The notes beneath the pieces were generated by a model, which did not search any database, was not told the DNA's origin, and was given only the letters and a program-made list of their open reading frames with translations. The translations under genes and the position numbers were made by a program. 64,000 bases of DNA from a virus (Duplodnaviria > Caudoviricetes): positions 1 to 64,000 of the IMG/VR virus record IMGVR_UViG_3300030376_007544. One strand, given 5' to 3'. This document shows, piece by piece, positions 36,730-58,675 of the stretch. The stretch's first letter is position 1. Each line of letters starts with the position of its first letter.

Positions 36730-36744
36730 AACAAAGGTAACGAC

Positions 36745-39739: not shown

Positions 39740-39847
39740 GTCAGTTCGCTGAAAAATGTGTCACGTTACCTCCCGGTACAGAAGTTCGTCGCCGAAAAGT
39801 TCCGAACAAGTCCCGACCTTGTGAAAAATTTCACTAAGTTTCGAGCT

Positions 39848-39999
39848 AAGTTACCCGGCAGTAACTTAAAAATGACAAGTTACCCGGGAGTAACTTATGA
39901 AAAATGACGAAAACTTAAGTTACCAGGAAGTAACTTACGAAAACTTAAGTTACCCGGCAGTAACTTATCAAAATTTACGAAGTTACCCGGCAGTAACTT
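39848..39999. repeat. Five palindromes AAGTTAC-N6-GTAACTT (sixth copy at 46166)
   Basis: At 39848, 39877, 39917, 39947, 39980. Confidence 0.9.
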
Positions 40000-40060
40000 A
40001 TCGAAGCTCGAACGCCCAGGGGTGATTCCTCCCCTTGCCAGTGGGGAGGAACTTTTGGTG

Positions 40061-40150
40061 TTACTTCTTCGGAGGGATTGCACCTCTTAAGATTATGAAC
40101 CAAACTGTGCAGAACCCTATTGGTCCTACTAGTGCGAATAATGTATCCAC
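40061..40150 (-). CDS. 29-aa hydrophobic peptide
   Basis: MDTLFALVGPIGFCTVWFIILRGAIPPKK with leader hairpin and downstream hairpin. Confidence 0.45.
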   Translation of the reverse strand: MDTLFALVGPIGFCTVWFIILRGAIPPKK

Positions 40151-40473
40151 TTTGTTTCTCTTTCTATGTGATTGTGACTTTCACAACCTCACACCTTCCA
40201 GGATAACTGCTAAAAACAGAAATACCAACCTCTAAAAAAGAAATTTCTAATATTTAAATTTCTTCTATTTGAGGTTGCAAATTAGACATTTATCAGATAC
40301 TCGACCTGTTAGATTTTGAGCAGCTTTTGAGTAGCAGTAAAAAACAGAAATACCAACCTCAAAACCTAAAAAAAGAAATATCAAGATTTCTTTTTTTAGA
40401 GGTTGGTATTCGCCTGGTGAATCTGTATCCTGGTATATGTGAGGTTGAAAGTCAACTCCACAGAAAGGAATAA

Positions 40474-40698
40474 GTGAGACACTTATTAACGTTTACTAGA
40501 ATGATCGCACAAGAGATCAGACTAGTAATCACAAAGGTGCTAGATCTTCTAGCAACTCCATATTGGAGAGTTTACAACAAACTACACAATAGGAGGTACA
40601 GAAGAGAAAACCCCGAAAGGTTTGATCGACTAACTGGCGAGATGTTAGTTTTTGATCCTAGATCAGAAACATACAAAAGACTAGAGGAACTAGTCTAA
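40474..40698 (+). CDS. Hypothetical protein
   Basis: GTG with AGGA RBS, followed by a hairpin. Confidence 0.6.
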   Translation: MRHLLTFTRMIAQEIRLVITKVLDLLATPYWRVYNKLHNRRYRRENPERFDRLTGEMLVFDPRSETYKRLEELV

Positions 40699-40896
40699 TC
40701 GCAGAGGAGGCGCCCCTCGCAAGAGGGGCAACTCTTCACTACATAGAACACCTAGACAACCCTAGAGCGTTCAGAGTCCCCTAGAGGGCTAGAATACCTC
40801 TCTGAAATATAGAGGGGGGAGGGGAACCTGGGCGCTTTTATCTAACTTTGTGAAAACTTTCACAAACTTACTTTGTGAAAACTTTCACAAACTTTT

Positions 40897-41119
40897 GTTA
40901 AGTTTGCTTAACTTTGTTCGTGAAGTTCGCCTAACTCGATAAGTTAAGTTTGCTTAACTTTGTTAGTTAAGTTCGCCTAACTTTTTCTGTTAAGTTTGCC
41001 TAACATAAAATGTTAAGTTTGCTTAACATAAAATGTTAAGTCAGCCTAACAAAAAATGTTAGCTTAGCCTAACATCAAATGTTAGCTTAGCCTAACATCG
41101 AATGTGAGGCATGCCTAAC
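40897..41119. repeat. Ten GTTARG-N4-CYTAAC palindromes at exact 23-bp period (DtxR/IdeR/MntR-like boxes)
   Basis: Starts at 40897, 40920 ... 41104; further clusters at 41957, 43796, 44749, 46188, 47273, 50396, 51288, 54548. Confidence 0.9.
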
Positions 41120-41626
41120 ACCCAAATTTCGCCAGTTTCGCCTAAGCGCTGGAATCCTACGGTCAAGCTTTTTAGGATTTTTTGAAAAAAAAATTGAAAA
41201 AAATTTGAAAAAAAAATTGAAAACATTTAACATTCAACACACAAAGGAACCTTATACCTAGTAAAGAACTAAAACAATTACCAAACCAAACCACATATAC
41301 CCAGTGCCACAGTAGACCAACATCACTAACATGACACGTTGGAACTACGCAACAGTACCTAAACTGATACTAAATGATCACTACTCCAACTCAACTAAGT
41401 TAAAAAAACATTGAGGAACTGCACCCGAAGTAAGCAACTCGCTAGCTTTCTCCCAGAAAACTAGGGGATTACACTCATCAACCATGTACATAACTGCAAT
41501 CAAACGTTCCATTATATCCATGAACATACTGTATCGCAACCCTTTCCCCAAAAATCCTCCAATTCCTGCTACAATAGTTCAACAAATACTTGACACTTCA
41601 AACGGGACTATATAAGATAGATAAAC

Positions 41627-41785
41627 ATGAACGAAAACAACGACGACCACGCTACAGAAGCTTCGCCAGTTACTGCGCCTAGACTGTCACGCTATACTTG
41701 TCATAAGTGTGATGTATCACTAGAGGCACTAACAGAGTCTGATGTTTGGTGTGGAAAAGGACATCGCATGGAGAGGATAGGCTAA
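41627..41785 (+). CDS. Small Zn-ribbon protein (52 aa)
   Basis: CHKC...CGKGH; follows TTGACA..TAAGAT promoter. Confidence 0.55.
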   Translation: MNENNDDHATEASPVTAPRLSRYTCHKCDVSLEALTESDVWCGKGHRMERIG

Positions 41786-41786
41786 A

Positions 41787-41930
41787 GTGGCTAGAAGAAA
41801 CGCATCGTTTGGAGCAGGAACTATCAGCAAAACCCAGCGTAAACGCAAAGGGATACACGCAAAGAGTAAGCACTCCAAACTCAAAGGTTCCAAGAACTAT
41901 AAGAAAAAGTACAGAGGACAGGGAAGATAG
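41787..41930 (+). CDS. Small basic phage protein ending KKYRGQGR
   Basis: MARRNASFGAG...YKKKYRGQGR; this C-terminal motif recurs in small basic phage proteins. Confidence 0.65.
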   Translation: MARRNASFGAGTISKTQRKRKGIHAKSKHSKLKGSKNYKKKYRGQGR

Positions 41931-42174
41931 TTAGGCCCGAACAAACGTTCGCCAATGTTAAGCACGCCTAACATTTGATGTTAGCTTAACCTAACACATC
42001 GAACAAACGTTCGCCACATACCGAACAAATGTTCGCCCATGTTCGTCACATTTTTGCTCGTTTTGCGAAGCCACCCGAATCCTACGGTCAACCTACGGTC
42101 AGCATAAAACAGAAAAACCCCACACCCGAAAGAAAAAGAAAAGGTGTGGGGTTAGACTGGAAAGAAAGGTACTT

Positions 42175-42438
42175 TTAAGGTAGCACCAACCTCTGTCCTA
42201 TTTGAAGATATGAACCTCCATTGAGTTCGCTTGCTTGATAGACTGCGTGTCCAGTATGACCTTCGCAGTGTTCATTTATTATGTCCCAGAGAGTGTCGCC
42301 ACTTTCAACTGTCACTTCACCGGATTGGCACTTGTAGTCAATTGCGTCATTTGCGCCCTTGACTATCCCTATTCCCAGTCCAGCAGTGATAGCAATTGCG
42401 CCTATCCCTCCAAGAGCTTTTTTAGTTAATGTGTTCAT
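42175..42438 (-). CDS. Membrane-anchored LysM-domain protein
   Basis: N-terminal TM; VESGDTLWDI...LN....LQIGQRLVLP. Confidence 0.85.
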   Translation of the reverse strand: MNTLTKKALGGIGAIAITAGLGIGIVKGANDAIDYKCQSGEVTVESGDTLWDIINEHCEGHTGHAVYQASELNGGSYLQIGQRLVLP

Positions 42439-42554
42439 AGGTATAACCTTAACACACTCCATGTCACATTGCAACACTTCTCAACAAAAAATAAAAAAAT
42501 AATTTCTTAGGTAAAAGGTTGCGTTCATGTTGCAACTCTGCTAACATGGTATTC

Positions 42555-42701
42555 ATGAGTTACAGATACGACATAAAACACGACTGGTACACTGATAAGT
42601 GGAACGTCGTTGATACTCGTAACAGAGACTGCACAGTCTCCACACATAGTTCTAGGGAAGAAGCACTAGCCGAAGCGCTAAAAAAGGATAGTTCTTCTTA
42701 A
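42555..42701 (+). CDS. Hypothetical small protein (leaderless)
   Basis: MSYRYDIK...SREEAL. Confidence 0.5.
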   Translation: MSYRYDIKHDWYTDKWNVVDTRNRDCTVSTHSSREEALAEALKKDSSS

Positions 42702-43286
42702 CTAAGGGGGATGCTGAGGCTACCCCCCTAAATCTTAGCCCCACTTCTGGTTTCACTCATTTCCCAGAGGTGGGGCTTTCTTCGTGTACCCCCAACATTC
42801 ACCCAAAGCTCAACACGAACATATGTTCGCATCGAGGTCAGGTCAGGCCGAGCAGGTCGAGAGGCCGATGTGTCCCGATTACATCGGGGCTTTATCAGAC
42901 CTAAGCTTAGCTCGAAGCTTAGCTTGACCAGCTCGAAGCTTAGCTGGATGCAGGAAAAGTTTGCCAAAAGGTTGCATTTTGAATCGTTTTGCGCTAAACT
43001 TCAGCAAACCCTACGGTCAGCCTACGGTCAAACCTGGGAAAAATCAACAAAAGCCAACGAAAAGTTGCAATTTTGTCCAGCTTTGCAGCAGCTTAGCAGC
43101 AGCTTAACCAGCTTAGCAGCAGCTCGGATGCAGCGATTCGAGGTCAACCTCGTGAAGTCCCGACTATATCGGGACGATATGACCTCACTTATTGGCCATC
43201 TCGCACTTGCATCCATATAAGCTCGCATACCAGGAAGAAACCCCAGACTAGGGAAATGAGTAAAACCTAGTCTGGGGTTATGAACT

Positions 43287-43379
43287 TTAGTGTCCTAAAA
43301 CATTTAGGACTGCTAAAGTTAGAAATAGGATTCCGAACATCCAATACATCGGAACCATTTCTTTTGAATACCAACTCAT
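43287..43379 (-). CDS. 30-aa hydrophobic peptide
   Basis: MSWYSKEMVPMYWMFGILFLTLAVLNVLGH; GGGAG RBS, own promoter and terminator. Confidence 0.5.
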   Translation of the reverse strand: MSWYSKEMVPMYWMFGILFLTLAVLNVLGH

Positions 43380-43459
43380 CTTTATCTCCCTTCGTTGATA
43401 CTTCATCTTATCAAACTCACAACTAATTGCAACCTTTAATTAAAATTATTTATTATTTA

Positions 43460-43732
43460 TTACCACTCACGCCAACTTCTGCCCCAACGTGGAGATGTTG
43501 ATCGTAAGTAGGTTGCGAGTTCAGGGTACTTCTCTTCTATAGCGCTAGGCAAGTAAACGTGCACTAGCAGATCAAGCGTCCTAACGAACCTACAGGGAGA
43601 ACCAAACCAAAACCTACTTCGTGGTTTCATTTCGTTCTTGATGTAGGCACGAACCCTATTGTGATCTATGTCCCAATAATCAACGCCAACTTTATCTGCG
43701 AAGATTCGTAGTCCTATGTAGTAGTTGTTCAT
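43460..43732 (-). CDS. Hypothetical protein, paralog of 59108-59389
   Basis: DYWDIDH...RFWFGSPC...LDLLVHVYLPS shared. Confidence 0.8.
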   Translation of the reverse strand: MNNYYIGLRIFADKVGVDYWDIDHNRVRAYIKNEMKPRSRFWFGSPCRFVRTLDLLVHVYLPSAIEEKYPELATYLRSTSPRWGRSWREW

Positions 43733-44374
43733 ATGTATGAGTATAGGTTGTCTACAACTATATTGCAAGTTTTATCTAAGAAATTGTTTGATATTATTAG
43801 CTCCACCTAACATGCCCGAATGTTAGGCTTGCTTAACATTGAGTGTAAGTTTAACATAACACAGGTCAGGTCAGGTCAGGTCGAGCAGCAACAGGCCAAA
43901 TCGAGGTCAAGATGTCCCGAATATATCGGGACTAATCGAGAGCTTAGCAGCTTAGCAGCAGCTCGAAGCTTAGCTCGATCCCAGCTCAGCCGAAGCTGGA
44001 AAACCCTACGGTCAGCCTTTTTTTGCTAAAATGTTGCAAAACGAAAGGCTTTGTGATATAATGGAATCAACTTTTGCCCATCCTAGCACAAACTTTGGCG
44101 AAGACCATCCCAAATCCAGCTCGACGCAGCAACTTTGATCGACTCGACTCAGTGAGTCCCGACTATAACGGGGGTCTACTAGGTCGATTTGACCAGCTTT
44201 GGCCCTTATCGCCACATCCCGTATACCAGGAAGAGATCCCAAATTAGATAAGGAAATAAAACTAATTTGGGATCAACTCCGTAAATTTATTGTGTCACTC
44301 ACTTCTTGAGTGTGAGGGATTTATGTTGCCACGATCCCTACTCGCCGAATCTGATTCAGATGGTTTAGTTACGC

Positions 44375-44566
44375 TTAAGCCTGAACTGTGTCGAGCCATG
44401 CCTGCGCTTCCTCGTGCGTCTTAAACCCCATTAGGATTTTTGACGCTTCTGGATAAAGCGCGTGGAAGGCTGATGGTTCATTGCTCTCAGGTCCCCATAG
44501 CCGAAGCCATCGAGCACTGTAGCGAACTACGCCTGTCTCTATATGATCACCCCATTTCCACTCATG
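44375..44566 (-). pseudogene. Possible frameshifted cassette ORF
   Basis: Coding-like frame (…FKTHEEAQAWL) lacks an in-frame start after its promoter; the nearest ATG is out of frame by one base. Confidence 0.35.
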
Positions 44567-44641
44567 TATCCAGGTTATCACGAAATTTCGCAAAACCACC
44601 CGGTTTTTTAAAAAAATTTAAATTTGCCACATTATGGGAAA

Positions 44642-44656
44642 TGAGAATGATTCTCA
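44642..44656. promoter_or_regulatory. Fur/Zur-family 7-1-7 box
   Basis: Perfect palindrome TGAGAAT-G-ATTCTCA next to Rex, LexA and DtxR-like boxes. Confidence 0.6.
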
Positions 44657-45387
44657 AAAGTTTGTGAAATGTTTCACTAAGTGACCGAACATTTGTTCCC
44701 CCGAACACTTGTTCCCCCCGAACATATGTTCCCCGAACACTTGTTCGTGTTAAGCATGCCTAACATTGAGTGTTAGCTTAACATAACAAAATAAAAAAAA
44801 TAAAAAAATTTCAAGAAAAGGTTGTTTTTTTTGAAAGGCTGCACAAAAAATCGACAGGTCAAAATCGACCTCAGCGTGTCCCGAATATATCGGGGGTCTA
44901 CCAGGTCGCTGGAAACGCTACGGTCAAGCTACGGCCAAGCTTTCGAGCTGAAAAGGTTGCGAAAGCAAAAAACTTCTGCTAAAATGAAAAGAAATCTTCA
45001 AAAGTTTAGCGAAAGCCTGGGGAAAAACAACCAAAAGCGGCAAAAAGTTGAAAAAAAGCAGCTTCGCAGCGCAGCTTCGGGTCATCCAGCAGCCACATCC
45101 CGCATAAGTCCCGACTATATCGGGGGCCTCTAAGGTCCACGTATCCTGGATCGGATCATCCTTTTCACGAGCTTCACTCAGTGTGTTCATGTGACTACTT
45201 TTTAGTCTGGATCCCGATTTCACTCAGCGTGTTCATATGACTACTTTTTATTCTGGATCCAGAATCGTATTCATGGGATTTCCCACAATGTGGTTAATTT
45301 TGAAACTTTGGTAAAAAAGTTTCGAATGTCACAGGCATTAGATAGATTGAATACATGGAAAAGAAACAAGGGAAGGAAGGTGAAAAA

Positions 45388-45657
45388 ATGAGAACTCTTG
45401 AGAACGGAGCAACCGCTCTTGTGTGGAGTGTGCAACACAATGCTGAAGGCAGTGGGTATCGCAACTACACAGGCGTTGTTCTGGCTCATGCGCCCCATCT
45501 GATGGATCCATATGCAACATGGACTGTCGCTTCAGATGATGGGATCACGTTCTGGTGTAATGCAGGGCATTACTACTCCAGTCGTGAAGATGCACATCAA
45601 GACTTCGTAGTGCGTGCCACTAACGAAACAGACTTGATGTCTCACGCAGTAGCCTAA
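45388..45657 (+). CDS. Hypothetical protein
   Basis: GAAGGT RBS; GHYY...A..DF..R pattern. Confidence 0.65.
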   Translation: MRTLENGATALVWSVQHNAEGSGYRNYTGVVLAHAPHLMDPYATWTVASDDGITFWCNAGHYYSSREDAHQDFVVRATNETDLMSHAVA

Positions 45658-45774
45658 AGCGAGTCAGACTCGGAGCCTGATGGGGGCTTGGCAACAGAAC
45701 CCCATCACCCCAACAACTTGATAAGGAAGGAAAAAGATCCCCCACTCCCTAAGGTGGGGGATTTTTATTTACCC

Positions 45775-45876
45775 CAGATCCAGATCCAGATCCAGATCCA
45801 GATCCGAGCCTGATCCTGATCCGAGTCAGATCCAGATCCAGATCCAGATTGGAGTCAGATCCAGATCCAGATCCAT
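45775..45876 (+). repeat. (CAGATC)n hexamer tandem repeat
   Basis: CAGATCCAGATCCAGATC... with a few degenerate units. Confidence 0.9.
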
Positions 45877-46392
45877 CCCCGAAACTCTTTCAAACTGGGC
45901 AACTTTGGAAATCGCTACGGTCAAGCTCCGGTCAAACTTTTTGCATCCTTCTGATCCGCCCTCGATCCAACCCTGCAACCTGGAATACCCCCGATTATAT
46001 CGGGACTTTCTGAGAAGTCGAGGGTCTAAAGCTGCATCCGAGCTGCATCCGAGCTGGAGCTTAGCTACTGCGTGAGTCCCGTTATATTCGGGACTATACG
46101 ATAGGTTTTGACCTGACCTGACCTGCTGCTCGACCTGACCTGACCTGATGACCATCCCCCGAACTAAGTTACTCAGTGGTAACTTGTGTTAGGCACGCTT
46201 AACACTAAATGTTAGGTGAACTTAACATATGTTAGGTATGCTTAACATTCAATGTTAGGCACGCTTAACATACTCCCCGAATAATGTTAGCTTCACCTAA
46301 CACTCAATGTTAGGGCTACTTAACGAAATAAATAATCTAAAGAATTCATCAAAAACACCCGGAGTGTCACACATAGATGATAGATTGAACTT

Positions 46393-46704
46393 ATGAGTAG
46401 TTTGGAGGTGAAAGAAAATATGAGTCATGTACTTCTGATTGAAGGCGCTGATGGCGATTTAGTTGATGCACATACAGTGTGTAGCGACAGTTGTCACCGG
46501 AGCCTAGCAGTAGAGTTAGACGTGCCCTATGGAGGGTGGTTCGGTTGTATCGAACTGGAGTTTAACGACTACTGTCAGTCTTGTGGGACGCTGATTCATG
46601 GGGTTGAAGGACCCCATGAGTTCCATAACACTGTATGTGAAGATACCACTTGTGAACTTTGTTCTGATGAACGTAAGTTGCAACTGGAACTCGCTACAGT
46701 TTAA
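46393..46704 (+). CDS. Cys/His-rich hypothetical protein
   Basis: CSDSC, CQSCG, C....C..C. Confidence 0.65.
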   Translation: MSSLEVKENMSHVLLIEGADGDLVDAHTVCSDSCHRSLAVELDVPYGGWFGCIELEFNDYCQSCGTLIHGVEGPHEFHNTVCEDTTCELCSDERKLQLELATV

Positions 46705-47432
46705 GGCTTCAATCCAATCCTGAATAAGATTCGGACTCACACCCCTAGAGTTGGCACCAGAATAGGGGCAACACAAACAACAACACATTCAACGAAACAT
46801 TGAAATACAACTAAACAACTCATGGATATTCCCCGATTTACTTAGGTGAGTCGGGGAACTTTCCTGGAATCCGAGAAAGCTCGGAATTGCTACGGTCAAG
46901 TTATTCTGGTCAAACTGCAGCCAATCATCCGAACTCAAGCAGCCAATCGATTCGAACTCAAAAAGCCCCGTATATATCGGGACTAAATAAGAAGCTGAAT
47001 GAAATCGTGAGCTTAGCTGCTGCTGCGAGCTGAGCTTAGCCGCTAAAAAGTGACGAAAAGTGACGAAAGTGACGAAAAGTTCGAAACTTTTTTACCATCC
47101 TATCAAAAGTTTTTGAAAATTGCAACTTTTTGCCGAAAAACCAGGGAGCTTAGCCGCTGAATCAGCCGCTACACGCTGCAAATCGAAGTCGATTCAGCAG
47201 GTAAGTCCCGTAATAATCGGGACATATTAAGGTTGGCCTGACCTGACCTGCCATCCCAGCAGCCATCCAAGTGTTAGGTATGCTTAACACGAAATGTTAG
47301 GTACGCTTAACATTAGAACCGAACAAGTGTTCGTTTATGTCATTTATGTTACAGAAAAAGAAATTTAAGAAAATCTTGCGTAAAACTTGCAATTGTCACA
47401 CCCACCACCTAAGATGGTGTTTACATAGATGA

Positions 47433-47482
47433 GGCACCTGCCAAGTAGGTGAAGAGTCTGGGTAAGAGTCCCAGAAGGTGCC
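47433..47482 (+). ncRNA. Conserved three-way-junction leader RNA, copy 1
   Basis: P1 GGCACCT/AGGTGCC around GCC-loop-GGT-GAAGAG-TCTGGG-TAAGAGT-CCCAGA. Confidence 0.6.
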
Positions 47483-47514
47483 ACATTGTAAACACCTATA
47501 GGAAAGAAAAACAT

Positions 47515-47760
47515 ATGCTTACACGTATGCATTTCGACACTGTAGCGAATAGCTTAAGGCTTAGGCTTGAAGCACTTATTGACAACCTCAATAGAGCGCC
47601 TCAAATCCACATGGAAGCCGTTAAGGTATGGCACGCAATCGCTTGCGATATGCGCACCATGTTCGCTGGAAGTAACCCTAGATTTGATGAAGAAAAGTTT
47701 AACGACGCTTCTGGAATCACTTCAGTGGAATACTTTCTCCCCAGTGTCAAAACCGACTAA
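47515..47760 (+). CDS. Hypothetical phage protein
   Basis: MLTRMHF..VA...NPRFD..KF pattern. Confidence 0.7.
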   Translation: MLTRMHFDTVANSLRLRLEALIDNLNRAPQIHMEAVKVWHAIACDMRTMFAGSNPRFDEEKFNDASGITSVEYFLPSVKTD

Positions 47761-48302
47761 GAGTCGGAGTCCGGCGGAACTCGGCAACAGAATCCGCCCA
47801 AATAAATAGCCAACCTAAACAAATACTCCGCTGAAAGGGCGGGGTATTTGCCTGGAATCGAGAAAGTTCGAAAACCCTACGGTCAAGCTACGGTCAAGCT
47901 TTTGAGCTGGTCGGCAGGTCAAAACTCAAGTCGATCCCAATCAGTCCCGAATATAACTGGACTATCTAACCGTTCTTTTGTTTAATTCGAGCTTAAGGAC
48001 CACCCAGGCAAAGGTTCCCGACTTGTCTGACGGGAACCTTTTTTAATCCGGTATTTAGTTTGGAACCTTATCGCTTTTTGGGCGGTATACAACTTTTCAG
48101 TATGTAAAACCACACCATAGCAAATCCTACTGGACCTACTAGAGCAAATACAATTTCCATGTATTTCTTTCTGAGTGATTAAGTACTTCTTAACCTCTCA
48201 CCTTCAATACTAGGTGCAAATATCATAAATTGCAACCTTAAAACAAAAAAAATAAAAAATAACCCCTGATCCGAAGATCAAGGGCTACTTTTGTTATTAG
48301 TT

Positions 48303-49822: not shown

Positions 49823-50084
49823 ACATAAACTAAAACATAAAGTTTCGTGAAGAAGTTTTCTCATTTTCCTTCTTCATGAAACATTCCCAAAAAGACCCAC
49901 ACTTTTTCATTTTCTTTCGAGTGTGGGTCTTTTTCTGTCCAGCTACATAATACAAAATCAAAAAAATACTAAGAGTTGTATTTATATCGGGACTTTCTTA
50001 CTTACCCTTCCTTCTATTACACCTCTATGGTGTCCCTATGGTGTCCCTACCCAGGCAGAAGGGGAGCCGAAGCCCCCCTCCAAA

Positions 50085-50279
50085 TTAAGACGCTTTTTTA
50101 GCGTTGAGTTTTTTGAAGTAAGGAGTGACATCATCAACCACTTTTTCACCGTAGTGAATTTCAGTGGCGATTACCATGTCTCCACAGTCCCTTATTTCTT
50201 GGGCTTTTTCTTCGAGCTCATATTCACATACGATTTCCGAAGTGCCTTCGTTATAAGCAATTAATAAGAATTCTCTCAT
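50085..50279 (-). CDS. Hypothetical protein
   Basis: ORF with promoter and terminator. Confidence 0.55.
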   Translation of the reverse strand: MREFLLIAYNEGTSEIVCEYELEEKAQEIRDCGDMVIATEIHYGEKVVDDVTPYFKKLNAKKAS

Positions 50280-50730
50280 TGTTTTCTTTCTATCTGATTG
50301 AGACTCTCTCAACCCGATAACTTAACTCTAACAGGGTTTGAGAAAAAACACAACCTTTTTTCAAAAAAAAATAAAATAATTTTTTCCTCTATTTTGTTAG
50401 GTATGCTTAACATCAAATGTTAGCTACGCCTAACACTTTTACTGGTCGAGTGGCCTGAAATTGAAAAATCAAGCTGACTTTGTGAAACTTTTCACAAACT
50501 ATCGAGGAGTTTGTCGATATTTGGCCTCAAAAAGTCCCGATTATATCGGGGGCCTCTGAGGTCGAAAACTCTACGGTCAGCTCACGGTCAGCTTGCCCGC
50601 CCACCCGTAAAGTCCCGTATATATCGGGGCTTAAAGACCTCGAAACTCGAACGGCCACTCAAAAGCTCGTATACCAGGCGAAATCCACCGCACTCATAAT
50701 GCGGTGGAAGCCTCCTTCGGTTAAGAAGTT

Positions 50731-51111
50731 TTACCGTCTTGGTTGTGTAACTTTGACGGAAGAAACTTCTTTGATGTTGATCGCTTTACCAACAAGATCG
50801 CTATCTAGCCACCCTGCTTCAACCGCACCGTCAATAAGTTTCATCTCACCGACTCGCTTGGTAACACGTTGGTGTTGCCCTTGCGGAAGAATCGCTTTCA
50901 GAACATCGTTGTCAATAGATCGTCTGTTTTGATTCACTATTGCAACTTTCGTTCCGTCTGCGAGGGTTACGCTTTCAACTTCTAACGCTCGGAAAGCAAG
51001 TTCTGCTTCCTCAACCGCTTCCCTTGCTTCTGCAAGAGCGCTCCGTGCTTCCACGACTCGCTGTGCGGTTAGTTCGCTGATCTTGCGATCATTCACTAAT
51101 AAAGTATCCAT
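50731..51111 (-). CDS. Hypothetical protein, paralog of 57023-57406
   Basis: ESVTLADGTKVAIV.QNRRSIDN...LPQGQHQRVTKRVG shared. Confidence 0.8.
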   Translation of the reverse strand: MDTLLVNDRKISELTAQRVVEARSALAEAREAVEEAELAFRALEVESVTLADGTKVAIVNQNRRSIDNDVLKAILPQGQHQRVTKRVGEMKLIDGAVEAGWLDSDLVGKAINIKEVSSVKVTQPRR

Positions 51112-51132
51112 GTCGGACCCTTTCTCTAATTC

Positions 51133-51185
51133 AGAAGCCTATCTGGGACTCTCACCCTGACTCTTCACCTAATGGCTAGACTCCT
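51133..51185 (-). ncRNA. Conserved three-way-junction leader RNA, copy 2
   Basis: Same core as 47433 with a different but still paired P1 (AGGAGTCTA/TAGGCTTCT). Confidence 0.6.
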
Positions 51186-51656
51186 GTTTTCTTTGATATA
51201 TCCAGGTTACCATCGTTGTGAGACAAAACCACCCGGTTTTTCAAAAAAATTTCAAATAATTTTTTTCGTAACATAAATGACATATTTGTTAAGTTCGCCT
51301 AACAGGCCATGTTCACGCTTGCGAACAGATTATGTTAAGTGCACCTAACAAACGATGTTAAGCAGAGCTAACAAATAAAAAAATAAAAAAAATAAAAAAA
51401 ACTTGACAAAAGGTTGTTTTTGTGAAAGCAGCGTGCAGGTCAAAATCGAGGTCAGTATGTCCCGATTATTACGGGACTCTCTTCCTTCTATTAAGCCTCT
51501 ATGGTGTCCCTACCGCATGACCTGCAGCAGCGCTGACCAGTACCCGCCCAGGAAGAAGCCCTAGCAGGAAAATGAGTGAAACCTGCTAGGGCTTTCGGAC
51601 ATCGCATCAGTAGTTAGCAAAACTAGGTTACTAATCAGTAGTGCGATCCTCCGATT

Positions 51657-51794
51657 TTATGAGGAGAGATGTTTCGCTAGTTTGGGGTGCTCCCTTAGCG
51701 TCTTCTCTCTTACTTCACGCTCATGATGCCTGTGCATCGTTTTGGCGAGCGTAGCGTATAAGAGCGCTCCTATTATGTAAAGTGCTAATGTCAT
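51657..51794 (-). CDS. 45-aa peptide with N-terminal TM
   Basis: MTLALYIIGALLYATLAK...; AAAGG RBS. Confidence 0.5.
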   Translation of the reverse strand: MTLALYIIGALLYATLAKTMHRHHEREVREKTLREHPKLAKHLSS

Positions 51795-52016
51795 TGTTTA
51801 CCTTTCGTTTTAACGACAAGTACCACCGTATCAAAGATTCAACTACATTGCAACACCGAAAAGCTAAAAAATTAAATAATTATTTTTACGCTAAATACTT
51901 GCAATTGTCTCACGGGCCCTGTAGCATGGAATGTATAAAGAAAAGCGAGTAGTCCGCCGTAAGGACTGGTTCGAGTGAAAGCCTCGAAGGACTGCTCCCA
52001 AGTAGAAAGGTAAAGC

Positions 52017-52352
52017 ATGAAACTAATCACTGCTGATCAACGTAAACGGCTTCTGGCAAACCACGAAGCCAATCTCGAAGGAGAAGGAGGGATCGACCAC
52101 AAACCTGTAGTGAAAATATTCACGGCAGGGGCAGGGGCGACATGGTTGCTTACAGAGATGGACGAAGATGGAATCTTCTTCGGCCTATGTGATCTTGGTC
52201 TGGGGTTTCCAGAACTAGGTTATGTCTCTCAAAGTGAATTTGATTCACTTCCTGCAAATATGTTCCTCGAACGTGATGCATGGTTTACGGCTACGAAAAC
52301 CCTTAGCGAGTACGCTTCGGAAGCCCGTGGCCTGCGACGAATCGCTGCTTAA
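52017..52352 (+). CDS. DUF2958-family protein
   Basis: PVVKIF...ATWLLTE...FGLCDLGLGFPELGYVS. Confidence 0.85.
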   Translation: MKLITADQRKRLLANHEANLEGEGGIDHKPVVKIFTAGAGATWLLTEMDEDGIFFGLCDLGLGFPELGYVSQSEFDSLPANMFLERDAWFTATKTLSEYASEARGLRRIAA

Positions 52353-52992
52353 TCGGATGCCTCCGGCCTTCTGGTCGGGGGTATTTCCCTGGGTGGCCAT
52401 AAATAAAAATCGACTACCCGTGAAGTCCCGATATAGTCGGGGCATCCTGACCTCGACCTGACCTGACCTGACCAACCAGGAAAAATCCCCCAACACTTTC
52501 GTGCTGAGGGATGAACCTACACGTTATCCGTGACAGAGATCATGCATGTGGCGGAGATCTTCGTCCCAATCCCACATCATCTCCATAAGGTCTTCCTTAC
52601 TCATGAGTGGTTCTGCTTCGACCCACTCTCCGTCTTCATTTCTGGTCCATTCAGTCATTTTATCTCCGATCTGAATCTACAAGCTTCCACTTTGAAGGCC
52701 TGATATATCCAGATTACCATGACCACTTCATAATTGCAACCCCAAATAAAAATTAATTAATATTTTTAGCAGCCGTTGAAAATAGCAGCCACTGAAAATG
52801 CAGCAGCAGGTCAGGTCGAGTGCAGGTCAGATCAAACACAGGTCAGGTCTGGTCAGGTCTGGTCACCCCGTAAAGCCCCGATTTATACGGGGCTAAATAA
52901 GTAAGACCACTCAGGATTTCTCCCCCTCACTCTAGGCCACCCGTAGGTGGCGAGGCCCGTTGGTCTACGGGGTGGTCTACTTACTTCGACAA

Positions 52993-53142
52993 TTAGACGA
53001 TTTCGATTTCGAATTCGCCGTTGTCGTACTTCTTGTCGCATCCGTTTCCTCGAAAGCTTCCACAGAAGACTAATCCTTCTTCGGTTGCTATCGCATCGAG
53101 TGACGAGCAGAAGATTCCACAATTATCACATTTTACTGGCAT
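52993..53142 (-). CDS. Small Zn-finger protein
   Basis: CDNC...C......C; AAGGA RBS. Confidence 0.55.
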   Translation of the reverse strand: MPVKCDNCGIFCSSLDAIATEEGLVFCGSFRGNGCDKKYDNGEFEIEIV

Positions 53143-53392
53143 ACTGAATTCCTTTCGGTAGTTAATTATTTCAGTACTTCCAGGATACCACCGTTTGACC
53201 AGCATTGCAACATCAAATGCAAAAAAAAAGAATTTTAATTTCTTTGCAAAAACCGGGTGGTTTTGTCTCATAGTCGTGGTATCGTTCTATTTGTTGGTAA
53301 AGTACCGACATTACATACTAGCCGTAATTCTCGAATGAGTGGAAAGCCCCTGACAGTAGAAGCCTGTAGGTTCGAGTGGGAAAGGAATAGAA

Positions 53393-53761
53393 ATGTTTAC
53401 ACGAACAGATAGTGTTTGTATAGATATTAGTCAAGACGGACAAGTGCCTGTTCTAGGTTACGCTTATTCGTTCTCGAAAGCTCGTGACGAGTGGTTTGGC
53501 TACGTCGCTGTCAGAGAGGGTATGCTCTCTTCTGAAATGCGATACGTAGTTAAACAAATGCACCGTATCACGAAGTACGGAGAGGACGTATGGGAAGTAA
53601 TCGAAGGAACTACTGTCGAAGGTACCGATCCTGTAGAATCAGGAATACGGAACAACCGACAAAGTGCACTCGTTACACTGTCGAAATTGTCTTTAGATTT
53701 ATTTCGGGGTAACGACTATGTTGATTACGGAACCGTAATGAACATCCCACCACTTGGCTAA
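53393..53761 (+). CDS. Hypothetical protein
   Basis: ORF with structured leader, RBS and terminator. Confidence 0.65.
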   Translation: MFTRTDSVCIDISQDGQVPVLGYAYSFSKARDEWFGYVAVREGMLSSEMRYVVKQMHRITKYGEDVWEVIEGTTVEGTDPVESGIRNNRQSALVTLSKLSLDLFRGNDYVDYGTVMNIPPLG

Positions 53762-53974
53762 CCGAAGGGAATCCACCGAACTAAACACTCGGTGGATTTT
53801 GCCTGGTATGCGAGATTTTGTCAATTTCTGACCAGCAGGTCAGGTCATGCAGCAGGTCAGGTCAGGTCGAAGGTCGAGTAGTCCCGTATCTATCGGGACT
53901 CTTCTCCTTCTATTAGACTGCTATGGTGTCCCTATGGCGTACCTACGCTATGCAGCTCGCCCCAACCCCAACCA

Positions 53975-54251
53975 GGCGAAAAGCCCACCGAACTTCGGTG
54001 GATCGGTTCTTCACTCTCTACTTGCGAAGGGTATCTTGTTTGCCATTTAGGTTCGCCCTCCACCTTGCAAGGTTTTTGAGGAGTCCGCACCGTACCTTTC
54101 GGTTCTTTTGATGGTTTCCGTTTCCACTTCTGGTAGGTTTTTTGGTAAAAAGAACCTCTTTCCACGAAGTTCGGTGGGCCCTTAGTTGCAACCCAACCGA
54201 ATGGATATTCAGTTGTCAATTCGGGGTTTCCCCCTGCCACCCTTTCGGGCT
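53975..54251 (-). ncRNA. Candidate ~280-nt structured RNA cassette
   Basis: TTGCTT-17-TAAGAT promoter, three GAAA-capped hairpins, terminator. Confidence 0.45.
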
Positions 54252-54647
54252 ACGCCCATCTTAACATAAGGGTGAGACAAAAGCAACCTTTGTCCAACAA
54301 TTTCTTAAATAATTTTTTATTCCCAGTAGCGGCAAAATAGCGGCAAAATAGCAGCGAAAATCTGTCGTTTTTGAAAGTTTTTGACAAAAAACGGGAGACC
54401 AGCGGGCAGGCCAGTAGAAAATTTGGCAAAACTAATCAAAAATGACAGTTTTTGCTCAGCTCAGGCAGAGCTAAAAGGAGCAAAAGATGAAGGAGGTCAG
54501 GTCAAAGTTTACCTGAGGTCTAATAGCCCCGACTATATCGGGACCCGGTTAGGTATGCTTAACTCTTTTTGTTAGGTTGGCTTAACATCACTCTAAAAGG
54601 ACATGCAGAAACCCCGACCCTTTCGGGCCGGAGTTCGCTGCTGGGAT

Positions 54648-54866
54648 TTAGATGGGGAATTGTTCTCCGTATTGAAACTCTCGAACAACTATGACCATTT
54701 TTCCGCAACTATGGCAGTGATCATTTTCCCAATACTTAGAGCCACAAGAACATCGTGTACAACCTTCTTTGGCTATTCTGTTACCGAGTAGTTCATCTTG
54801 GGTAAACATTTGCAGTTGGCCCTCAAGTTCTACTCGTACTGTATCTTTTGTTAGTTCTTTTAACAT
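54648..54866 (-). CDS. Small Zn-ribbon protein
   Basis: CSCG..YWE...CHSCG. Confidence 0.6.
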   Translation of the reverse strand: MLKELTKDTVRVELEGQLQMFTQDELLGNRIAKEGCTRCSCGSKYWENDHCHSCGKMVIVVREFQYGEQFPI

Positions 54867-54957
54867 CTTTTGTCTATTCCTAACTTCGCTCGGTACTTCC
54901 TTGCGATAACTCCATTATACACCGTCTACAGTAAATTGCAAGTCTTTAGGTAAGATT

Positions 54958-55488
54958 TTACAGAGTTAAGTTCTGTAGTTCTCCGTTATCCATCATCTCA
55001 AATAAGATCGTTAATGACTTACTTTGCCTCTCTTGAGTGTGTTTACCTTGATCTACTTTGAATGACCAGCGTGGGTCCTTCTTCGCTTCCTCTAAACCTT
55101 TGTTACTGAAAGGTTCACCAGTGTAGTGGTAGACGCTAGTAATTGTTGGTTTACGTTCTTTAGAACTCCAGAGCTCGTTTAGGCAGTCACATTCATGATC
55201 ACCAAACTCTCCTACTAATGCTCCGATATGCTCCAGATCACAAGTACTTAAAAGATCAGTCTGTACTACCAGATGATCTAATAGTTCACTTCCCTCAAAA
55301 ATGGTAAGAGAAGGAGACTCTGTAGACACAACTAAGTCTACTGCTGTAGCCATGTCTAGTTGGTCGTGGATAGGCATAACTTCTGCCCACTTGTATCCAT
55401 CTTCTTCGTGTATGTCAAGAACGAGAACAAGCGAGTCGCCATTGACGACCCGCAAGTCTCCTCTCGCTAAAGTTCTATTAGCACCCAT
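54958..55488 (-). CDS. Hypothetical protein
   Basis: AGGAGG RBS. Confidence 0.7.
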   Translation of the reverse strand: MGANRTLARGDLRVVNGDSLVLVLDIHEEDGYKWAEVMPIHDQLDMATAVDLVVSTESPSLTIFEGSELLDHLVVQTDLLSTCDLEHIGALVGEFGDHECDCLNELWSSKERKPTITSVYHYTGEPFSNKGLEEAKKDPRWSFKVDQGKHTQERQSKSLTILFEMMDNGELQNLTL

Positions 55489-55586
55489 GTACGAGATTAC
55501 CTCCTATGAATGCAAACAGAAAGACTGCTACGGCAAGTATTATAGAGACACCTATGCGTCTCCTGAAGTAAATAGTATCCCAATCT

Positions 55587-55871
55587 TTATTCAAGGTCCT
55601 CACCTACTTCTATTGCTACTGCTTTAACCATCTGTCTGATTTCAGTTCTTCCATTAGTATGACTCCGCAGAACTGTCATAAAGGCTGTCTCTCTCATTTC
55701 CATGAGCGAGTCCTCTAGGAGTTCATTGTCATCATGTCCTTCATCAAGAGCCTCTTGATAAAGGATTTCTAAACCTTCTTCTACCATCTTGAGGGATTCC
55801 ATTACTAGGTAAAGACGATCACTAAATGGTAGTGCTTCGGTATCTGTTCGTTCTTGAAACTCAATACTCAT
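55587..55871 (-). CDS. Hypothetical acidic protein
   Basis: Coupled to upstream ORF. Confidence 0.65.
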   Translation of the reverse strand: MSIEFQERTDTEALPFSDRLYLVMESLKMVEEGLEILYQEALDEGHDDNELLEDSLMEMRETAFMTVLRSHTNGRTEIRQMVKAVAIEVGEDLE

Positions 55872-56056
55872 TACCAGTTCCCCTTTCTACAAGCCTTACG
55901 ACTTGCTTCTTTTTTACGATTAGTAAACTTGACTGCACGCTGTCTACGGCCTTCTTGCATGTGTGCCACTTTGGACTCATACGCTAATTTCCGTATTGAC
56001 TTGTGTATGTCATATGGTTCTAATTCTATTTTTAGCTTTTTCTTAGTTCTAGCCAT
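55871..56056 (-). CDS. Small basic protein
   Basis: AGGAG RBS; RKK.ASRKACR tail. Confidence 0.6.
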   Translation of the reverse strand: MARTKKKLKIELEPYDIHKSIRKLAYESKVAHMQEGRRQRAVKFTNRKKEASRKACRKGNW

Positions 56057-56140
56057 TTTGACTCCTTTTGTCTAGGCTGATTTGTTGTTAGTTTAAGGAT
56101 ACCAAAACCGGAGAGGCATTGCAACCTCTCCGGCATGATA

Positions 56141-56776
56141 TTATAGATTCGCTAATGCTCCTCTAGCGCTACTATGATGAGCAGACAATTCGCTAGTCTC
56201 ATCGTAGTGACACTCTCCGGCAAAGTACGCTTGCCCTCCCTCGAAGCACATACCTTCCTCTCGGAAAGATACGCTAATTTTTAGGGTAGGGAATTGTTTA
56301 GACACATGCTCCCAGAATGAATTACTTAATGGACTCCATGCCGTTTCAAAACGACCATCTATCTGTCCACGTTCATCATCGTAGTAAGAGTCCAGATGGG
56401 TTTCATAGTCTCCCCATTTGGTTCCCCAATTCTCGTCAGAGATTGCCCACGAGTACCAGTCACTGAAACCTGTTGTTTCTCTAGCCTCAATACCAGCAGC
56501 CCACTCTTCTGCATGAATCGCTTTTGCTTTATTGTACTTATCCATATTCCAATTTTCATTGGTTGGATTGTTCACCCATTCCATATACTTTCCATCTTCA
56601 TCAAATTGCTCTGATTTTGGACTTGGGGATTTAGTACCCTCAAGTATTTCTGGCATGGGCATGAGGTTTACGATACGAACGTCATCAGTTACCTGATCCC
56701 TGATCGCTTCCTCGAAACGTCTTACATCAGACGCTGGTCCTTCTACCTCTAGGTAGTTTTCGCAATGGTTCGGCAT
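56141..56776 (-). CDS. DUF1281/Api92-like protein
   Basis: MPNHCEN.L, WY.W...NWGTKW, FETAWSP. Confidence 0.8.
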   Translation of the reverse strand: MPNHCENYLEVEGPASDVRRFEEAIRDQVTDDVRIVNLMPMPEILEGTKSPSPKSEQFDEDGKYMEWVNNPTNENWNMDKYNKAKAIHAEEWAAGIEARETTGFSDWYSWAISDENWGTKWGDYETHLDSYYDDERGQIDGRFETAWSPLSNSFWEHVSKQFPTLKISVSFREEGMCFEGGQAYFAGECHYDETSELSAHHSSARGALANL

Positions 56777-56777
56777 A

Positions 56778-56939
56778 TTAGCCTCTACTTTCTAGCAGAT
56801 CATCTGCCATGTCTCGGATACCTTGATAATCTGGTACCTCGTCACTGAAATGAATGTCATTAGGAACATTTAGCTCCGCTAACATACTTTCAATTTCTTC
56901 ATCTGGTAAAGTTTCCTCTACCTCTATTGTGTTTTTCAT
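56778..56939 (-). CDS. Hypothetical acidic protein
   Basis: AGGAG RBS. Confidence 0.5.
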   Translation of the reverse strand: MKNTIEVEETLPDEEIESMLAELNVPNDIHFSDEVPDYQGIRDMADDLLESRG

Positions 56940-57022
56940 AAAGTCTCCTGACTTTGGTTTGTTTAACATATTACGAGTGTATCAGGCTAGGGAGTCTATT
57001 GCAACTCCCTAGCCCAAATAAC

Positions 57023-57406
57023 TTATCGCTTTGGTTGGGTAACTTTCAGCGATTGTACTTCTTTGACGGTGATTGCTTGGTTTACCAAGTCTCCATCTAA
57101 CCAACCTGCTTCGATTGCTCCGTCAATGAGTTTCATGTCACCGACTCGTTTGGTTACTCTTTGATGTTGTCCTTGTGGAAGAACATCTTTGAGAACCTCA
57201 TTGTCAATGCTTCGTCTATTTTGTGTGACGATTGCAACTTTGGTTCCGTCTGCAAGAGTTACAGATTCAACATCTAACGCTTTGAATTGCGCTTCTGCTT
57301 CTTCAACTGCATCTTTTGCATCTGCTAAAGCGGAACGAAGTTCAACAACTTTTTGGGCTGCTAACTCCTCTACTTTAGTTTGGTTAATAATTACTGTTGT
57401 ATTCAT
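57023..57406 (-). CDS. Hypothetical protein, paralog of 50731-51111
   Basis: Near-identical core sequence. Confidence 0.8.
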   Translation of the reverse strand: MNTTVIINQTKVEELAAQKVVELRSALADAKDAVEEAEAQFKALDVESVTLADGTKVAIVTQNRRSIDNEVLKDVLPQGQHQRVTKRVGDMKLIDGAIEAGWLDGDLVNQAITVKEVQSLKVTQPKR

Positions 57407-57660
57407 TTTAAGTCCTCCATGACTTATTAGTGTGTTTTCAACTTAACAGATCGTTTTCTTTCTGTCAAGTCTTTACCTAAGATTTTTCAAATAAATTTTA
57501 TTTGCTTCCTCATCGGTATATTCAATTTACCAGATGGGTGTGACAATGACAACCTCGAACACAATAAAATTAAATAATTATTTTTGGAATAATGACTTGA
57601 CAAGGTAAATCAGGCCTGCTACCATTACTGACGTAAACAACTATAACTCATGGAGGTACT

Positions 57661-57912
57661 ATGAGCGACACAATGCAAGACATTGAAACAAAATGGATAG
57701 AGCGAATCAGCAAGGAGCTTGTCGGTAAGACAATCACGAGTGTTGAGTATCTCTCTCCAAAAGAAGCAGAAGATAATTATTGGTACAAGCGACCAATCGC
57801 AATTACTTTTGATGATGGAACATGGATAATACCCATGTCAGATGACGAAGGAAATGACGGAGGTTCTCTTGCCACAAGCATAGAGGAACTTCAGATAATC
57901 CCAGTCCTCTAA
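57661..57912 (+). CDS. Hypothetical phage protein
   Basis: LVGKTI..V.Y...P.SDDEGNDGG pattern; GGAGG RBS. Confidence 0.75.
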   Translation: MSDTMQDIETKWIERISKELVGKTITSVEYLSPKEAEDNYWYKRPIAITFDDGTWIIPMSDDEGNDGGSLATSIEELQIIPVL

Positions 57913-58194
57913 TTCCACCACAGTCCTGAACATGACTCAAAACTGTTCACCCAAAACCAGACATATATTTTCGGAGACAAAACCGAAACAAAAAAAAGAT
58001 AGGACTTCCCCTGCGCTTTGTTGAACTCCAGCAAACAGCAGCGAAAGCAGCAGCAGGTCAGGTCAGGCCAAATCTGGTCAAAATCAAAAGAAGGGTGAGA
58101 TAGTCCAGTTTCTTTCGGGACTTCCTTAGTGCTATATGAGCTCAATGGTGTCCCTATGGTATCCCTACGGTTGGCAAGACCAGCAACCAGGAAG

Positions 58195-58632
58195 AAACCC
58201 CACCCTAGTGTTTATAACTTTAGGTGAGGCTTTGCCTGACTTGAAGCGGTCTGATGAACCCACGAAAGCGCTTTCGTACTCACGAGCAGCCTTCAAGCCA
58301 AACGACGAAGTAGATCAACAGCACGCTTTCACGCCGTCACTCTCATCTTACAAAATAGTATCTTTACCGACTCGGAGTCTATATTTAGCATCCCATACTC
58401 TAAGTAACTATGGTGCTAATAGAAACCTTTTGGTTCTACTTCAATACTGGTAGTGACTCCAGTATCCGTTTTTTATTCTATTGTGTGTAACATACCGGAT
58501 ACAAATCGTTTGAGGTTGAATCAGGTCGCTAGGCTCCCATATAATCCAGACCAGCAAGGTCGAATATAGTTCCGATATGTTACCTGTAACTTTGGTGGGG
58601 TAGCCGCAGCGCCCCACCTCCTGTTACCGGAT
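58195..58632 (-). ncRNA. Candidate ~440-nt structured non-coding RNA
   Basis: TTGACA-17-TAATGT promoter (58667-58639), no minus-strand ORF of 60 aa or more, many stems, terminal hairpin. Confidence 0.55.
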
Positions 58633-58675
58633 ATAAATACATTAGCAGACTCTTAAAGGTTTGTCAAGTCTTTTT

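Follow-up and report, generated by a model that had tools for sequence, protein, structure and literature searches.

A cassette array between two conserved genes

We analyzed the first 64 kb (64,000 nucleotides, hereafter the window) of IMG/VR virus record IMGVR_UViG_3300030376_007544, a linear record of 128,360 bp with an estimated completeness of 87%, in which positions 39740-58670 hold an array of small gene cassettes with long intervening spacers. The labels used below are G000 for the phage's own genome, L followed by a number and G001 for its relatives, and X followed by a number for sequencing runs. The gene content of the window, as assigned by Pfam, includes a portal protein, terminase, primase-helicase, SSB, ThyX, thymidine kinase, two DNA methylases, and an SNF2 helicase. 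Two WhiB proteins are also encoded, and in the control genomes this family matched Corynebacterium only; an actinobacterial host predicted from these two genes is therefore well supported. Near-identical DNA was found in 20 sequencing runs of marine origin, which belong to at least 11 studies dated 2014-2025, and none of 50,697 GenBank phage records gave a megablast match to the array or to the flank upstream of it. The array and the main genes within and beside it are as follows.

37853-39739, + strand: SNF2-family helicase (Pfam), conserved left anchor with homologues at 94-40% identity
39740-58670, both strands: the array as a whole, with about 33 genes grouped into about 27 units and 42% of the sequence coding
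41627-41930, + strand: two-gene unit for a zinc-ribbon-like protein of 52 aa and a very basic one of 47 aa; no other unit is as widely shared, and L231 and G001 have it as well
43280-43459, - strand: mini-cassette consisting of a 39-aa open reading frame (ORF; 43287-43406) and its promoter, present in L265 and absent from L231 and L266
44138-44809, - strand: unit U4 (palindrome, CCAGG-terminator, gene, promoter, operators), paralogue of an extra unit in L227
50731-51111, - strand: 126-aa gene, 75% identical to a paralogue at 57023-57406
52017-52352, + strand: DUF2958 protein (Pfam, E=6.9e-31)
54958-57406, - strand: denser gene block, including a DUF1281_C/Api92-like gene (56141-56776)
60041-60943, + strand: DUF932 protein (Pfam), conserved right anchor, collinear in G001 at 68% amino-acid identity

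The cassette array that the initial annotation had described as roughly 25 short units is confirmed, with the count revised to about 27 self-contained units that together hold about 33 small genes. Coding sequence, taken from a curated set of these genes, makes up 42% of the region (7.98 kb coding vs 10.95 kb non-coding), with about 200-610 bp of coding content per unit, and ORFs of at least 100 aa cover a fraction of 0.28 of positions 39740-54950 vs 0.86-0.89 elsewhere. Nearly all array genes lack a Pfam or PHROG family; those with a match are the DUF2958 gene, the DUF1281_C/Api92-like gene, an L5 gp82-like gene, and one gene with a weak HNH/Lar-like hit. Compared with L231, a relative at 75-85% identity, most substitutions lie at third codon positions (6/4/42, 12/8/28, and 8/6/21 for the three positions), from which we conclude that the genes are real and under purifying selection. 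The 126-aa gene, duplicated in the window, is present in G001 as one copy in the opposite orientation.

Some units and leaders have features of their own. A 30-nt leader element is common, at 93% identity (47446-47475 and 51142-51171), to two unrelated genes, 47515-47760 (+) and 50731-51111 (-), and the leader of gene 50085-50279 is reused on another gene in L231, so that leaders also seem to be exchangeable modules. A unit of 254 bp without an ORF lies between two copies of the motif CTACGGTCA (48960-49215; see below) and ends with a strong terminator; with a folding energy of -89.5 kcal/mol (z = -2.6) and no Rfam match, it is a candidate small RNA. An imperfect 308-bp palindrome with arms 68% identical occupies 40160-40467, between the first operator cluster and gene 40474-40698. 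The terminator of gene 45388-45657 is followed, at 45768-45883, by a tract of hexamer repeats of about 115 bp, made of (GATCCA)n and similar units, at which independent assemblies break.

Promoters, terminators, and CCWGG sites

Each unit had been credited with its own -35/-10 promoter. A generic promoter scan of the array stayed at chance level (34 found vs 33 expected), whereas the specific combination of a TTGCRA box and an A/T tract shows an enrichment of about 5-fold, with 18 copies in 18.9 kb vs 21 in 109 kb. Three units (44591, 51224, and 53253) have another class of promoter, in which TGGTA(A/T)C comes after AAAAACCGGGTGGTTTTG, and in two of the three CCTGG lies at the -10/start region.

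The pentamer CCWGG was originally listed at 12 positions where it abuts a terminator. All 12 exist, and three more were found at 40016, 40827, and 52388. The resulting 15 sites lie 1-6 nt past a hairpin of -17.7 to -29.6 kcal/mol with a short T-rich tract, always distal to the hairpin in the direction of transcription (rough chance expectation about 0.3), and several share a longer common block, CCTGGTAT(G/A)CGAG. As a general terminator boundary the motif fares less well, as only about half of the terminators carry CCTGG. Outside the array CCWGG is depleted (51 observed vs 124-142 expected); inside, it reaches a normal total of 28, of which 27 sites fall in the 10.95 kb of non-coding DNA and one in the 7.98 kb of coding DNA. 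Within the 21.9 kb examined in G001 there is no CCWGG, and equivalent terminators are followed by, e.g., TTTCTTCGTGCC. The terminator-CCWGG rule is thus real yet specific to this lineage. No C5 methylase was found in the 10 kb upstream of the SNF2 gene in relatives with zero CCWGG. Separately, the SNF2 gene of L134 is directly followed by a short tandem repeat rich in CCWGG (12583-13197), with sites every 15-30 bp and 48 in the locus, and several of its sister phages are without any CCWGG.

One family of terminators stands out by its loop.

43227-43280, - strand: terminator then CCTGG, with the 13-nt loop TTTYACTCATTTY kept and co-varying stems
42745-42785 (+ strand) and 51552-51596 (- strand): sister terminators with the same loop

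The family, which also includes L231 2662-2703 and 3093-3137, has the loop UUUYACUCAUUUY in transcribed orientation on stems of 12-14 bp with compensatory changes, and the conserved 13-nt loop may be a protein or RNA contact.

Spacer motifs and operator-like boxes

Motif copies were counted in the array region and in the whole 128,360-bp genome. The spacer motif families named by the initial annotation all proved real and practically confined to the array. The counts cover the CCCG-N7-CGGG palindrome (18/18 inside the region), CTACGGTCA (14/14, + strand throughout), AGGTCAGGTC (18/18), GCTTAGC (14/15), the DtxR-like pattern TGTTARG-N5-YTAAC (40/41 matches), GAACA-N2-TGTTC (7/7), GTTAC-N6-GTAAC (6/6), and GTGAAA-N2-TTTCAC (5/5). 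The common order proposed for them was also recovered. Spacers at 42.8, 43.8, and 44.6 kb run from operators through (CAGGT)n, a palindrome, GCTTAGC/GCAGC runs, and CTACGGTCA to a second palindrome and CCAGG, and those at 45.9 and 46.9 kb have the same order mirrored. A shorter version, with (AGGTC)n, palindrome, CTTCCTTCTATTA, TATGGTGTCCCTA, and CCAGG-terminator, occurs four times (50.0, 51.4, 53.8, and 58.1 kb), and in a self-comparison the spacers had blocks in common that are 30-125 bp long and 70-93% identical, in either orientation. Candidates from outside the phage were rejected: the palindrome pattern matched 118 stretches of viral contigs, all chance singletons without the other motifs; the CTACGGTCA tandem had one match in viral contigs, in the unrelated L123; and contigs OBJA01 and Ga0194135 hold CTACGGTCA tandems without the other motifs and are likewise unrelated. 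Two of the repeated elements occupy the following ranges.

41157-50592, + strand: series of CTACGGTCA, often as an 11-bp tandem, in eleven clusters
42872-54631, no strand assigned: 19-bp palindrome GTCCCG-N7-CGGGAC, 18 copies, typically one on each side of a CTACGGTCA tandem

The CTACGGTCA series stays on the + strand regardless of the direction of neighbouring genes, with successive clusters spaced by 925, 929, 995, 912, 997, 975, 987, 1087, 254, and 1353 bp. Seven consecutive intervals equal 960±34 bp, a regularity reached in 0 of 200,000 trials of random placement (p<5e-6), and the series is conserved in L231. The same strand bias is seen for AGCTTAGC (14/14) and for GCAGC runs (37 vs 11), whereas the pentamer repeat and the palindrome, unlike these one-way motifs, turn together with the adjacent gene.

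Conservation was examined in the spacer between units 2 and 3, aligned with two relatives at 75-85% identity. Islands of conservation coincide with the palindromes and terminators (two of each), with an orphan promoter, with the CTACGGTCA tandem (21/22 columns), and with ATACCAGG and its terminator, and the DNA between them has diverged. The palindrome GTCCCG-N7-CGGGAC is kept as a sequence as such, beyond pairing, in the 75-85% relatives, and (AGGTC)n and AGCTTAGC runs are replaced there by GCAGC and TCGA-type runs. Because the islands are conserved and the repeats replaced, we conclude that the core motifs are under selection and that the simple repeats are interchangeable.

Clusters of operator-like palindromes include the following.

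39819-40010: first operator cluster, one Rex-like box and five GTTAC-N6-GTAAC palindromes
40840-41125: two exact Rex-type boxes (TTGTGAA-N4-TTCACAA), then about eight DtxR/IdeR-like palindromes
44660-44775: one Rex-like, four Cheo (LexA-type), and two DtxR-like boxes, packed together ahead of the promoter of gene 44375-44581
46165-46325: one GTTAC-N6-GTAAC and six DtxR-like palindromes upstream of gene 46393-46704

By pattern matching, eight boxes have the form CGAAC-N4-GTTC(G/C), which we take to be the Cheo or LexA box of Gram-positive bacteria. Three are exact copies of the Rex box TTGTGAA-N4-TTCACAA (PMC2883068), and about 25 palindromes match 12-14 of the 15 core positions of the IdeR box consensus (PMC4598388). 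At this pattern level, the boxes fit the published LexA, Rex, and IdeR consensus sequences. No LexA, Rex, or DtxR homologue was found among the phage proteins. The arrays visible in relatives begin with Cheo-box or DtxR/Rex clusters right after the SNF2 gene.

Differences among related phages

The most similar sequences preserve the array. Our rearrangement checks rest on assembled contigs, which cannot show rare variants. In contigs from runs X3 (2015) and X5 (2018), which belong to two other, independent studies, positions 39500-59400 are tiled collinearly with 0-8 differences per multi-kb piece, the X3/X5 contigs being interrupted at simple repeats only, and L209, L211, and L214 are collinear at 99.6-99.9% identity. 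Apparent joints with sides of 20-30 nt (e.g., X5 51266->54299 and X8 43934->46075) were discounted as other contigs matching A/T tracts, palindromes, or pentamer repeats, and a depth spike at 45.5-46.1 kb stems from simple repeats common to other organisms. Searches for further loci by the DUF932 and 126-aa proteins in viral contigs and by alignment A2 in metagenome contigs yielded nothing.

At about 96% identity, a whole unit has been gained or lost. The strain L227 matches the window over 45438-47962, then carries an extra unit of 759 bp, and resumes at 47856, the site being the following.

47877-47898, + strand: CTACGGTCA tandem at which the extra unit of L227 lies, flanked by a direct repeat of about 30 bp

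Both flanks of the extra unit read CGAAAACC(C)CTACGGTCAAGCTACGG(C/T)CA, and the CTACGGTCA tandem is part of this direct repeat. The unit itself is 77% identical to window unit U4 over 630 columns, in an alignment that spans the palindrome, CCAGG-terminator, gene, promoter, and Rex/Cheo/DtxR boxes, with the operator order of 44660-44775 kept. The junction was also found in run X8 (2025).

More distant relatives differ by several units. L231, L265, and L266 (75-85%) keep units 1-3 in order; after the CTACGGTCA tandem of unit 3, L231 and L266 start like unit 8 (97% over 39-41 nt) and go on with cassettes foreign to the window. This second left breakpoint is thus also at a CTACGGTCA tandem. On their left side they have a different neighbour with the leader of window gene 50085-50279. 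No indel (insertion or deletion) was mapped to a promoter-terminator pair. In G001, with about 70% amino-acid identity at both anchors, the array measures 15 kb vs 20.3 kb here, and about nine gene families are in common with the window between SNF2 and DUF932, in changed order and with four inverted. Unit lengths in relatives range from 750 to 1087 bp. Units are thus gained, lost, inverted, and reordered among relatives, as the initial annotation had expected of a shufflable platform, whereas the near-identical strain is collinear.

Among 17 contigs of relatives found by their SNF2 gene, ten end 16-4321 bp past the gene, six end inside it, and one runs through; those ending just past the gene include contigs of 68 kb and 105 kb. 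The SNF2 homologues P0013, P0020, and P0021 (970-985 aa) have a LAGLIDADG (PF14528) insertion, which is probably an intein, and the six contig ends within the gene may be due to an intein present in some strains only. In relatives at about 40% SNF2 identity, no gene-poor array follows the SNF2 gene and coding density is normal, which indicates that the architecture is clade-specific.

Proposed cassette shuffling and alternative explanations

We consider it reasonably probable that the array is a hyperplastic accessory-gene region of a marine actinobacterial phage, similar to the promoter early stem-loop (PeSL) cassettes of T4-type phages, in which units are shuffled through spacer modules that serve as homology. 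Each unit would be self-contained, its small gene preceded by a promoter that has an A/T-rich tract upstream and followed by a strong terminator; the spacers would supply LexA/Rex/IdeR-like palindromes near promoters, GTCCCG-N7-CGGGAC, a one-way CTACGGTCA tandem, and CCTGG after the terminator. The first job of these repeated modules is probably to insulate and regulate each unit. They may double, as a by-product or as a selected property, as short patches of homology through which whole units could be inserted, deleted, flipped, and exchanged between co-infecting relatives, the agents being either the host's proteins or the Rad52-like, RecB-like, and RecA proteins of the phage, with no site-specific recombinase. 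All three phage proteins, which had been put forward as possible agents, are encoded in the window.

13242-14057, - strand: PDDEXK/RecB-like nuclease, adjoining the Rad52-like gene
14017-14664, - strand: Rad52-like annealing protein
20535-21518, + strand: phage RecA (E=1.1e-135)

The site-specific recombinase that had been suggested elsewhere in the genome did not appear, since no tyrosine (Phage_integrase, E<=0.1) or serine (Resolvase) recombinase was found in the 128-kb record, which is 87% complete. Annealing-type recombination would leave a flanking repeat of about 30 bp, and the flanks of the extra unit in L227 fit this. CCWGG, originally described as a boundary, is not where the crossover was mapped: the mapped junction lies in a CTACGGTCA tandem, and G001 has the same architecture within 21.9 kb free of CCWGG. 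We infer the recombination pathway, the motif-binding proteins, and the timing of expression.

Several observations weigh against shuffling through the spacer modules. No rearrangement is visible in the 2015 and 2018 contigs of the near-identical strain, and because near-identical sequence is collinear between those years and present from 2014 to 2025, unit turnover must be slow. Of the breakpoints predicted to fall at repeats, only one indel mapped cleanly to a repeat, the CTACGGTCA tandem in L227, and the indel at 43280-43459, which L231 and L266 are without, is not at a motif of the spacer kit. The contig breaks past the SNF2 gene could stem from repeats alone. The strong conservation of the motif cores argues for a first job other than recombination. 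Nor does the model account for the 960-bp period, kept despite about 200-610 bp of coding content per unit, for the one-way orientation of CTACGGTCA, AGCTTAGC, and GCAGC runs, or for the CCWGG retained in the array. Taken together, the first interpretation of the array is partly supported.

Instead, the spacers might act mainly as a sponge or sensor for the host regulators LexA, Rex, and IdeR, with shuffling secondary; the boxes would then titrate repressors as the phage genome multiplies, or tie genes to DNA damage, redox state, and iron. The eight CGAAC-N4-GTTCG-type, three exact Rex, and about 25 IdeR-like boxes (PMC2883068, PMC4598388) point in this direction, as do the lack of a phage LexA, Rex, or DtxR homologue, the Cheo-box or DtxR/Rex arrays that follow SNF2 in relatives, and the RecA encoded by the phage. 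However, these boxes are pattern matches only, the palindrome, CTACGGTCA tandem, pentamer repeats, and CCTGG are left unaccounted for, and a role of this kind is compatible with cassette shuffling and does not exclude it; as the main function of the spacers we regard it as possible, if doubtful.

With a different emphasis, a one-way unit of about 960 bp would be a docking scaffold that takes foreign small genes in either orientation and wires them to LexA, Rex, and IdeR, with CCWGG as a functional mark. The unit would consist of palindrome, CTACGGTCA tandem, palindrome, and terminator-CCTGG, would be recombined by the phage annealing and RecA proteins, and, its regulatory sockets being built in, could be called an "integron without an integrase", in which CCWGG, held despite its genome-wide avoidance, would be a methylation, pause, or cleavage site. 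We think such a scaffold rather unlikely. Further conceivable ideas were a CRISPR-repeat mimic, a signal that would stop injection, and a Chi-like role of the one-way motif.

A further possibility is that the spacers encode small non-coding RNAs from orphan + strand promoters, each RNA starting at or near the CTACGGTCA tandem, containing the GTCCCG-N7-CGGGAC hairpin, and ending at the shared terminator, so that a unit would be one protein gene plus one RNA gene. One candidate is the orphan promoter conserved between units 2 and 3.

42970-43000, + strand: orphan promoter TTGCAT-17-TAAACT, 10 nt before a CTACGGTCA tandem

In L231 it reads TTGCAA-17-TACAAT, keeping sequence and spacing (GGTTGCA, 17 nt, and TAcAAT across relatives), and similar good orphan + strand promoters occur at 44034 and 44957; the + strand bias of CTACGGTCA, AGCTTAGC, and GCAGC runs (37 vs 11) would also fit. 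The promoter precedes the tandem in one unit, though, and follows it in others, and the conserved palindrome shows no compensatory changes, so that it looks more like a DNA site bound by protein. Rfam searches of the array gave nothing credible at gathering thresholds or E<=1, and no family matched the proposed RNAs. We hold spacer RNAs to be improbable as the explanation of the array, and both they and control or titration of host regulators are compatible additions to cassette shuffling more than exclusive rivals.

Site-specific, integron-like capture, in which a recombinase from the host or from the missing ~13% of the genome would insert and excise ~1-kb units either at the CTACGGTCA tandem or at structured terminators, would account for a boundary motif that points one way and recurs in each unit with a period of 960±34 bp, for an extra L227 unit placed exactly between two CTACGGTCA copies, and for terminators whose kept loop and co-varying stems are reminiscent of attC. 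It is at odds with the absence of Phage_integrase and Resolvase domains from 128 kb, with the variable unit lengths of relatives (750 to 1087 bp), and with the flanking repeat of about 30 bp, which suits annealing-type homologous recombination; because the units have their own promoters and both orientations, the array is not an integron, and we judge such capture very unlikely. Finally, an assembly artefact or chimera of a repeat-rich region, conceivable for a metagenome assembly whose repeats break relatives' contigs, is effectively refuted by the collinear X3 (2015) and X5 (2018) contigs and by L209, L211, and L214 at 99.6-99.9% identity.

Phage genomes are normally gene-packed, whereas this one gathers some 11 kb of conserved DNA without genes in one place. 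Cassette shuffling of the PeSL type would thereby extend to actinobacterial phages, in a richer design with separate modules for insulation, regulation, and exchange and with boxes resembling damage, redox, and iron sensors; if the boxes work, acquired genes would gain host-state control by landing in a unit. The small genes, DUF2958, DUF932, and Api92-like genes among them, are a candidate pool of host-takeover and anti-defence functions. Three oddities are concrete enough to be tested: the CCWGG kept behind terminators, the period of 960 bp, and the motifs that run one way.

Neighbouring genes and sequence composition

Two methylase genes lie just upstream of the left anchor.

35872-36729, + strand: C5 cytosine DNA methyltransferase (Pfam)
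37326-37856, after the C5 methylase: MT-A70 methylase (Pfam)

This block (35872-37856) differs in L003, a 93% relative, which has a different C5 methylase (37% identity) at another position and no MT-A70 gene, with flanking genes 92-94% identical. In the whole genome G000, CGCG is nearly lacking (5 copies vs ~151 expected under a third-order model), and GGATCC, GTTAAC, AGCT, and GGCC are depleted as well, which suggests strong restriction or methylation pressure. A second gene-poor stretch, past the window at G000 65096-68700, contains a single ATGGTGTCCCTA (66299), GCTTAGC (68007), and a DtxR-like box (68621), and adjoins a WhiB gene (68906-69097).

Comparison with known systems

Short asymmetric motifs repeated in intergenic actinophage DNA are familiar from the stoperators of cluster A mycobacteriophages such as L5, which are distributed genome-wide, oriented with transcription, and bound by the phage repressor. 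CTACGGTCA, unlike stoperators, is limited to 9.4 kb and keeps to one strand whatever the gene direction. Integron arrays resemble the present one in their single-gene units, each with a structured 3' element, and in a recurring boundary motif; they differ from it in that the phage has no IntI-type recombinase in 128 kb, its units have their own promoters and terminators and occur in both orientations, and there is no common Pc promoter. The host-takeover module of the Bacillus phage SPO1 is alike in being a block of small genes, reportedly some two dozen, which form many short operons equipped with terminators and strong early promoters. It sits in the terminal redundancy, and to our knowledge no spacer grammar, operator arrays, or unit-wise shuffling have been described for it.

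The closest known system is the PeSL hyperplastic regions of T4-type phages (PMC2839356, Arbiol et al. 2010; PMC4122927, Comeau et al. 2014), and the analogy drawn by the initial annotation fits (PMC2839356). Likenesses include small, mostly unknown genes, a sigma-70-like promoter with an A/T-rich upstream tract, a stem-loop terminator, repeated regulatory sequences concentrated in the variable region (here at 39.7-58.7 kb), relatives that differ by insertion, deletion, and replacement of units (here with one indel cleanly mapped to a repeat), and no dedicated recombinase. A PeSL is, however, a short composite in which the stem-loop overlaps or abuts the promoter, whereas most units here have both a promoter and a terminator that are separate, up to about 600 bp apart, and not fused into one element of this type. 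Also unlike PeSL regions, the spacers here have at least eight further motif families in fixed order, the genes lie in both orientations on a one-way scaffold, and the predicted host, on the basis of WhiB, is actinobacterial, the phage being probably not T4-type. Novel features are the long spacers, whose motifs follow a fixed order, the LexA/Rex/IdeR-like operator arrays, and the retained CCWGG.

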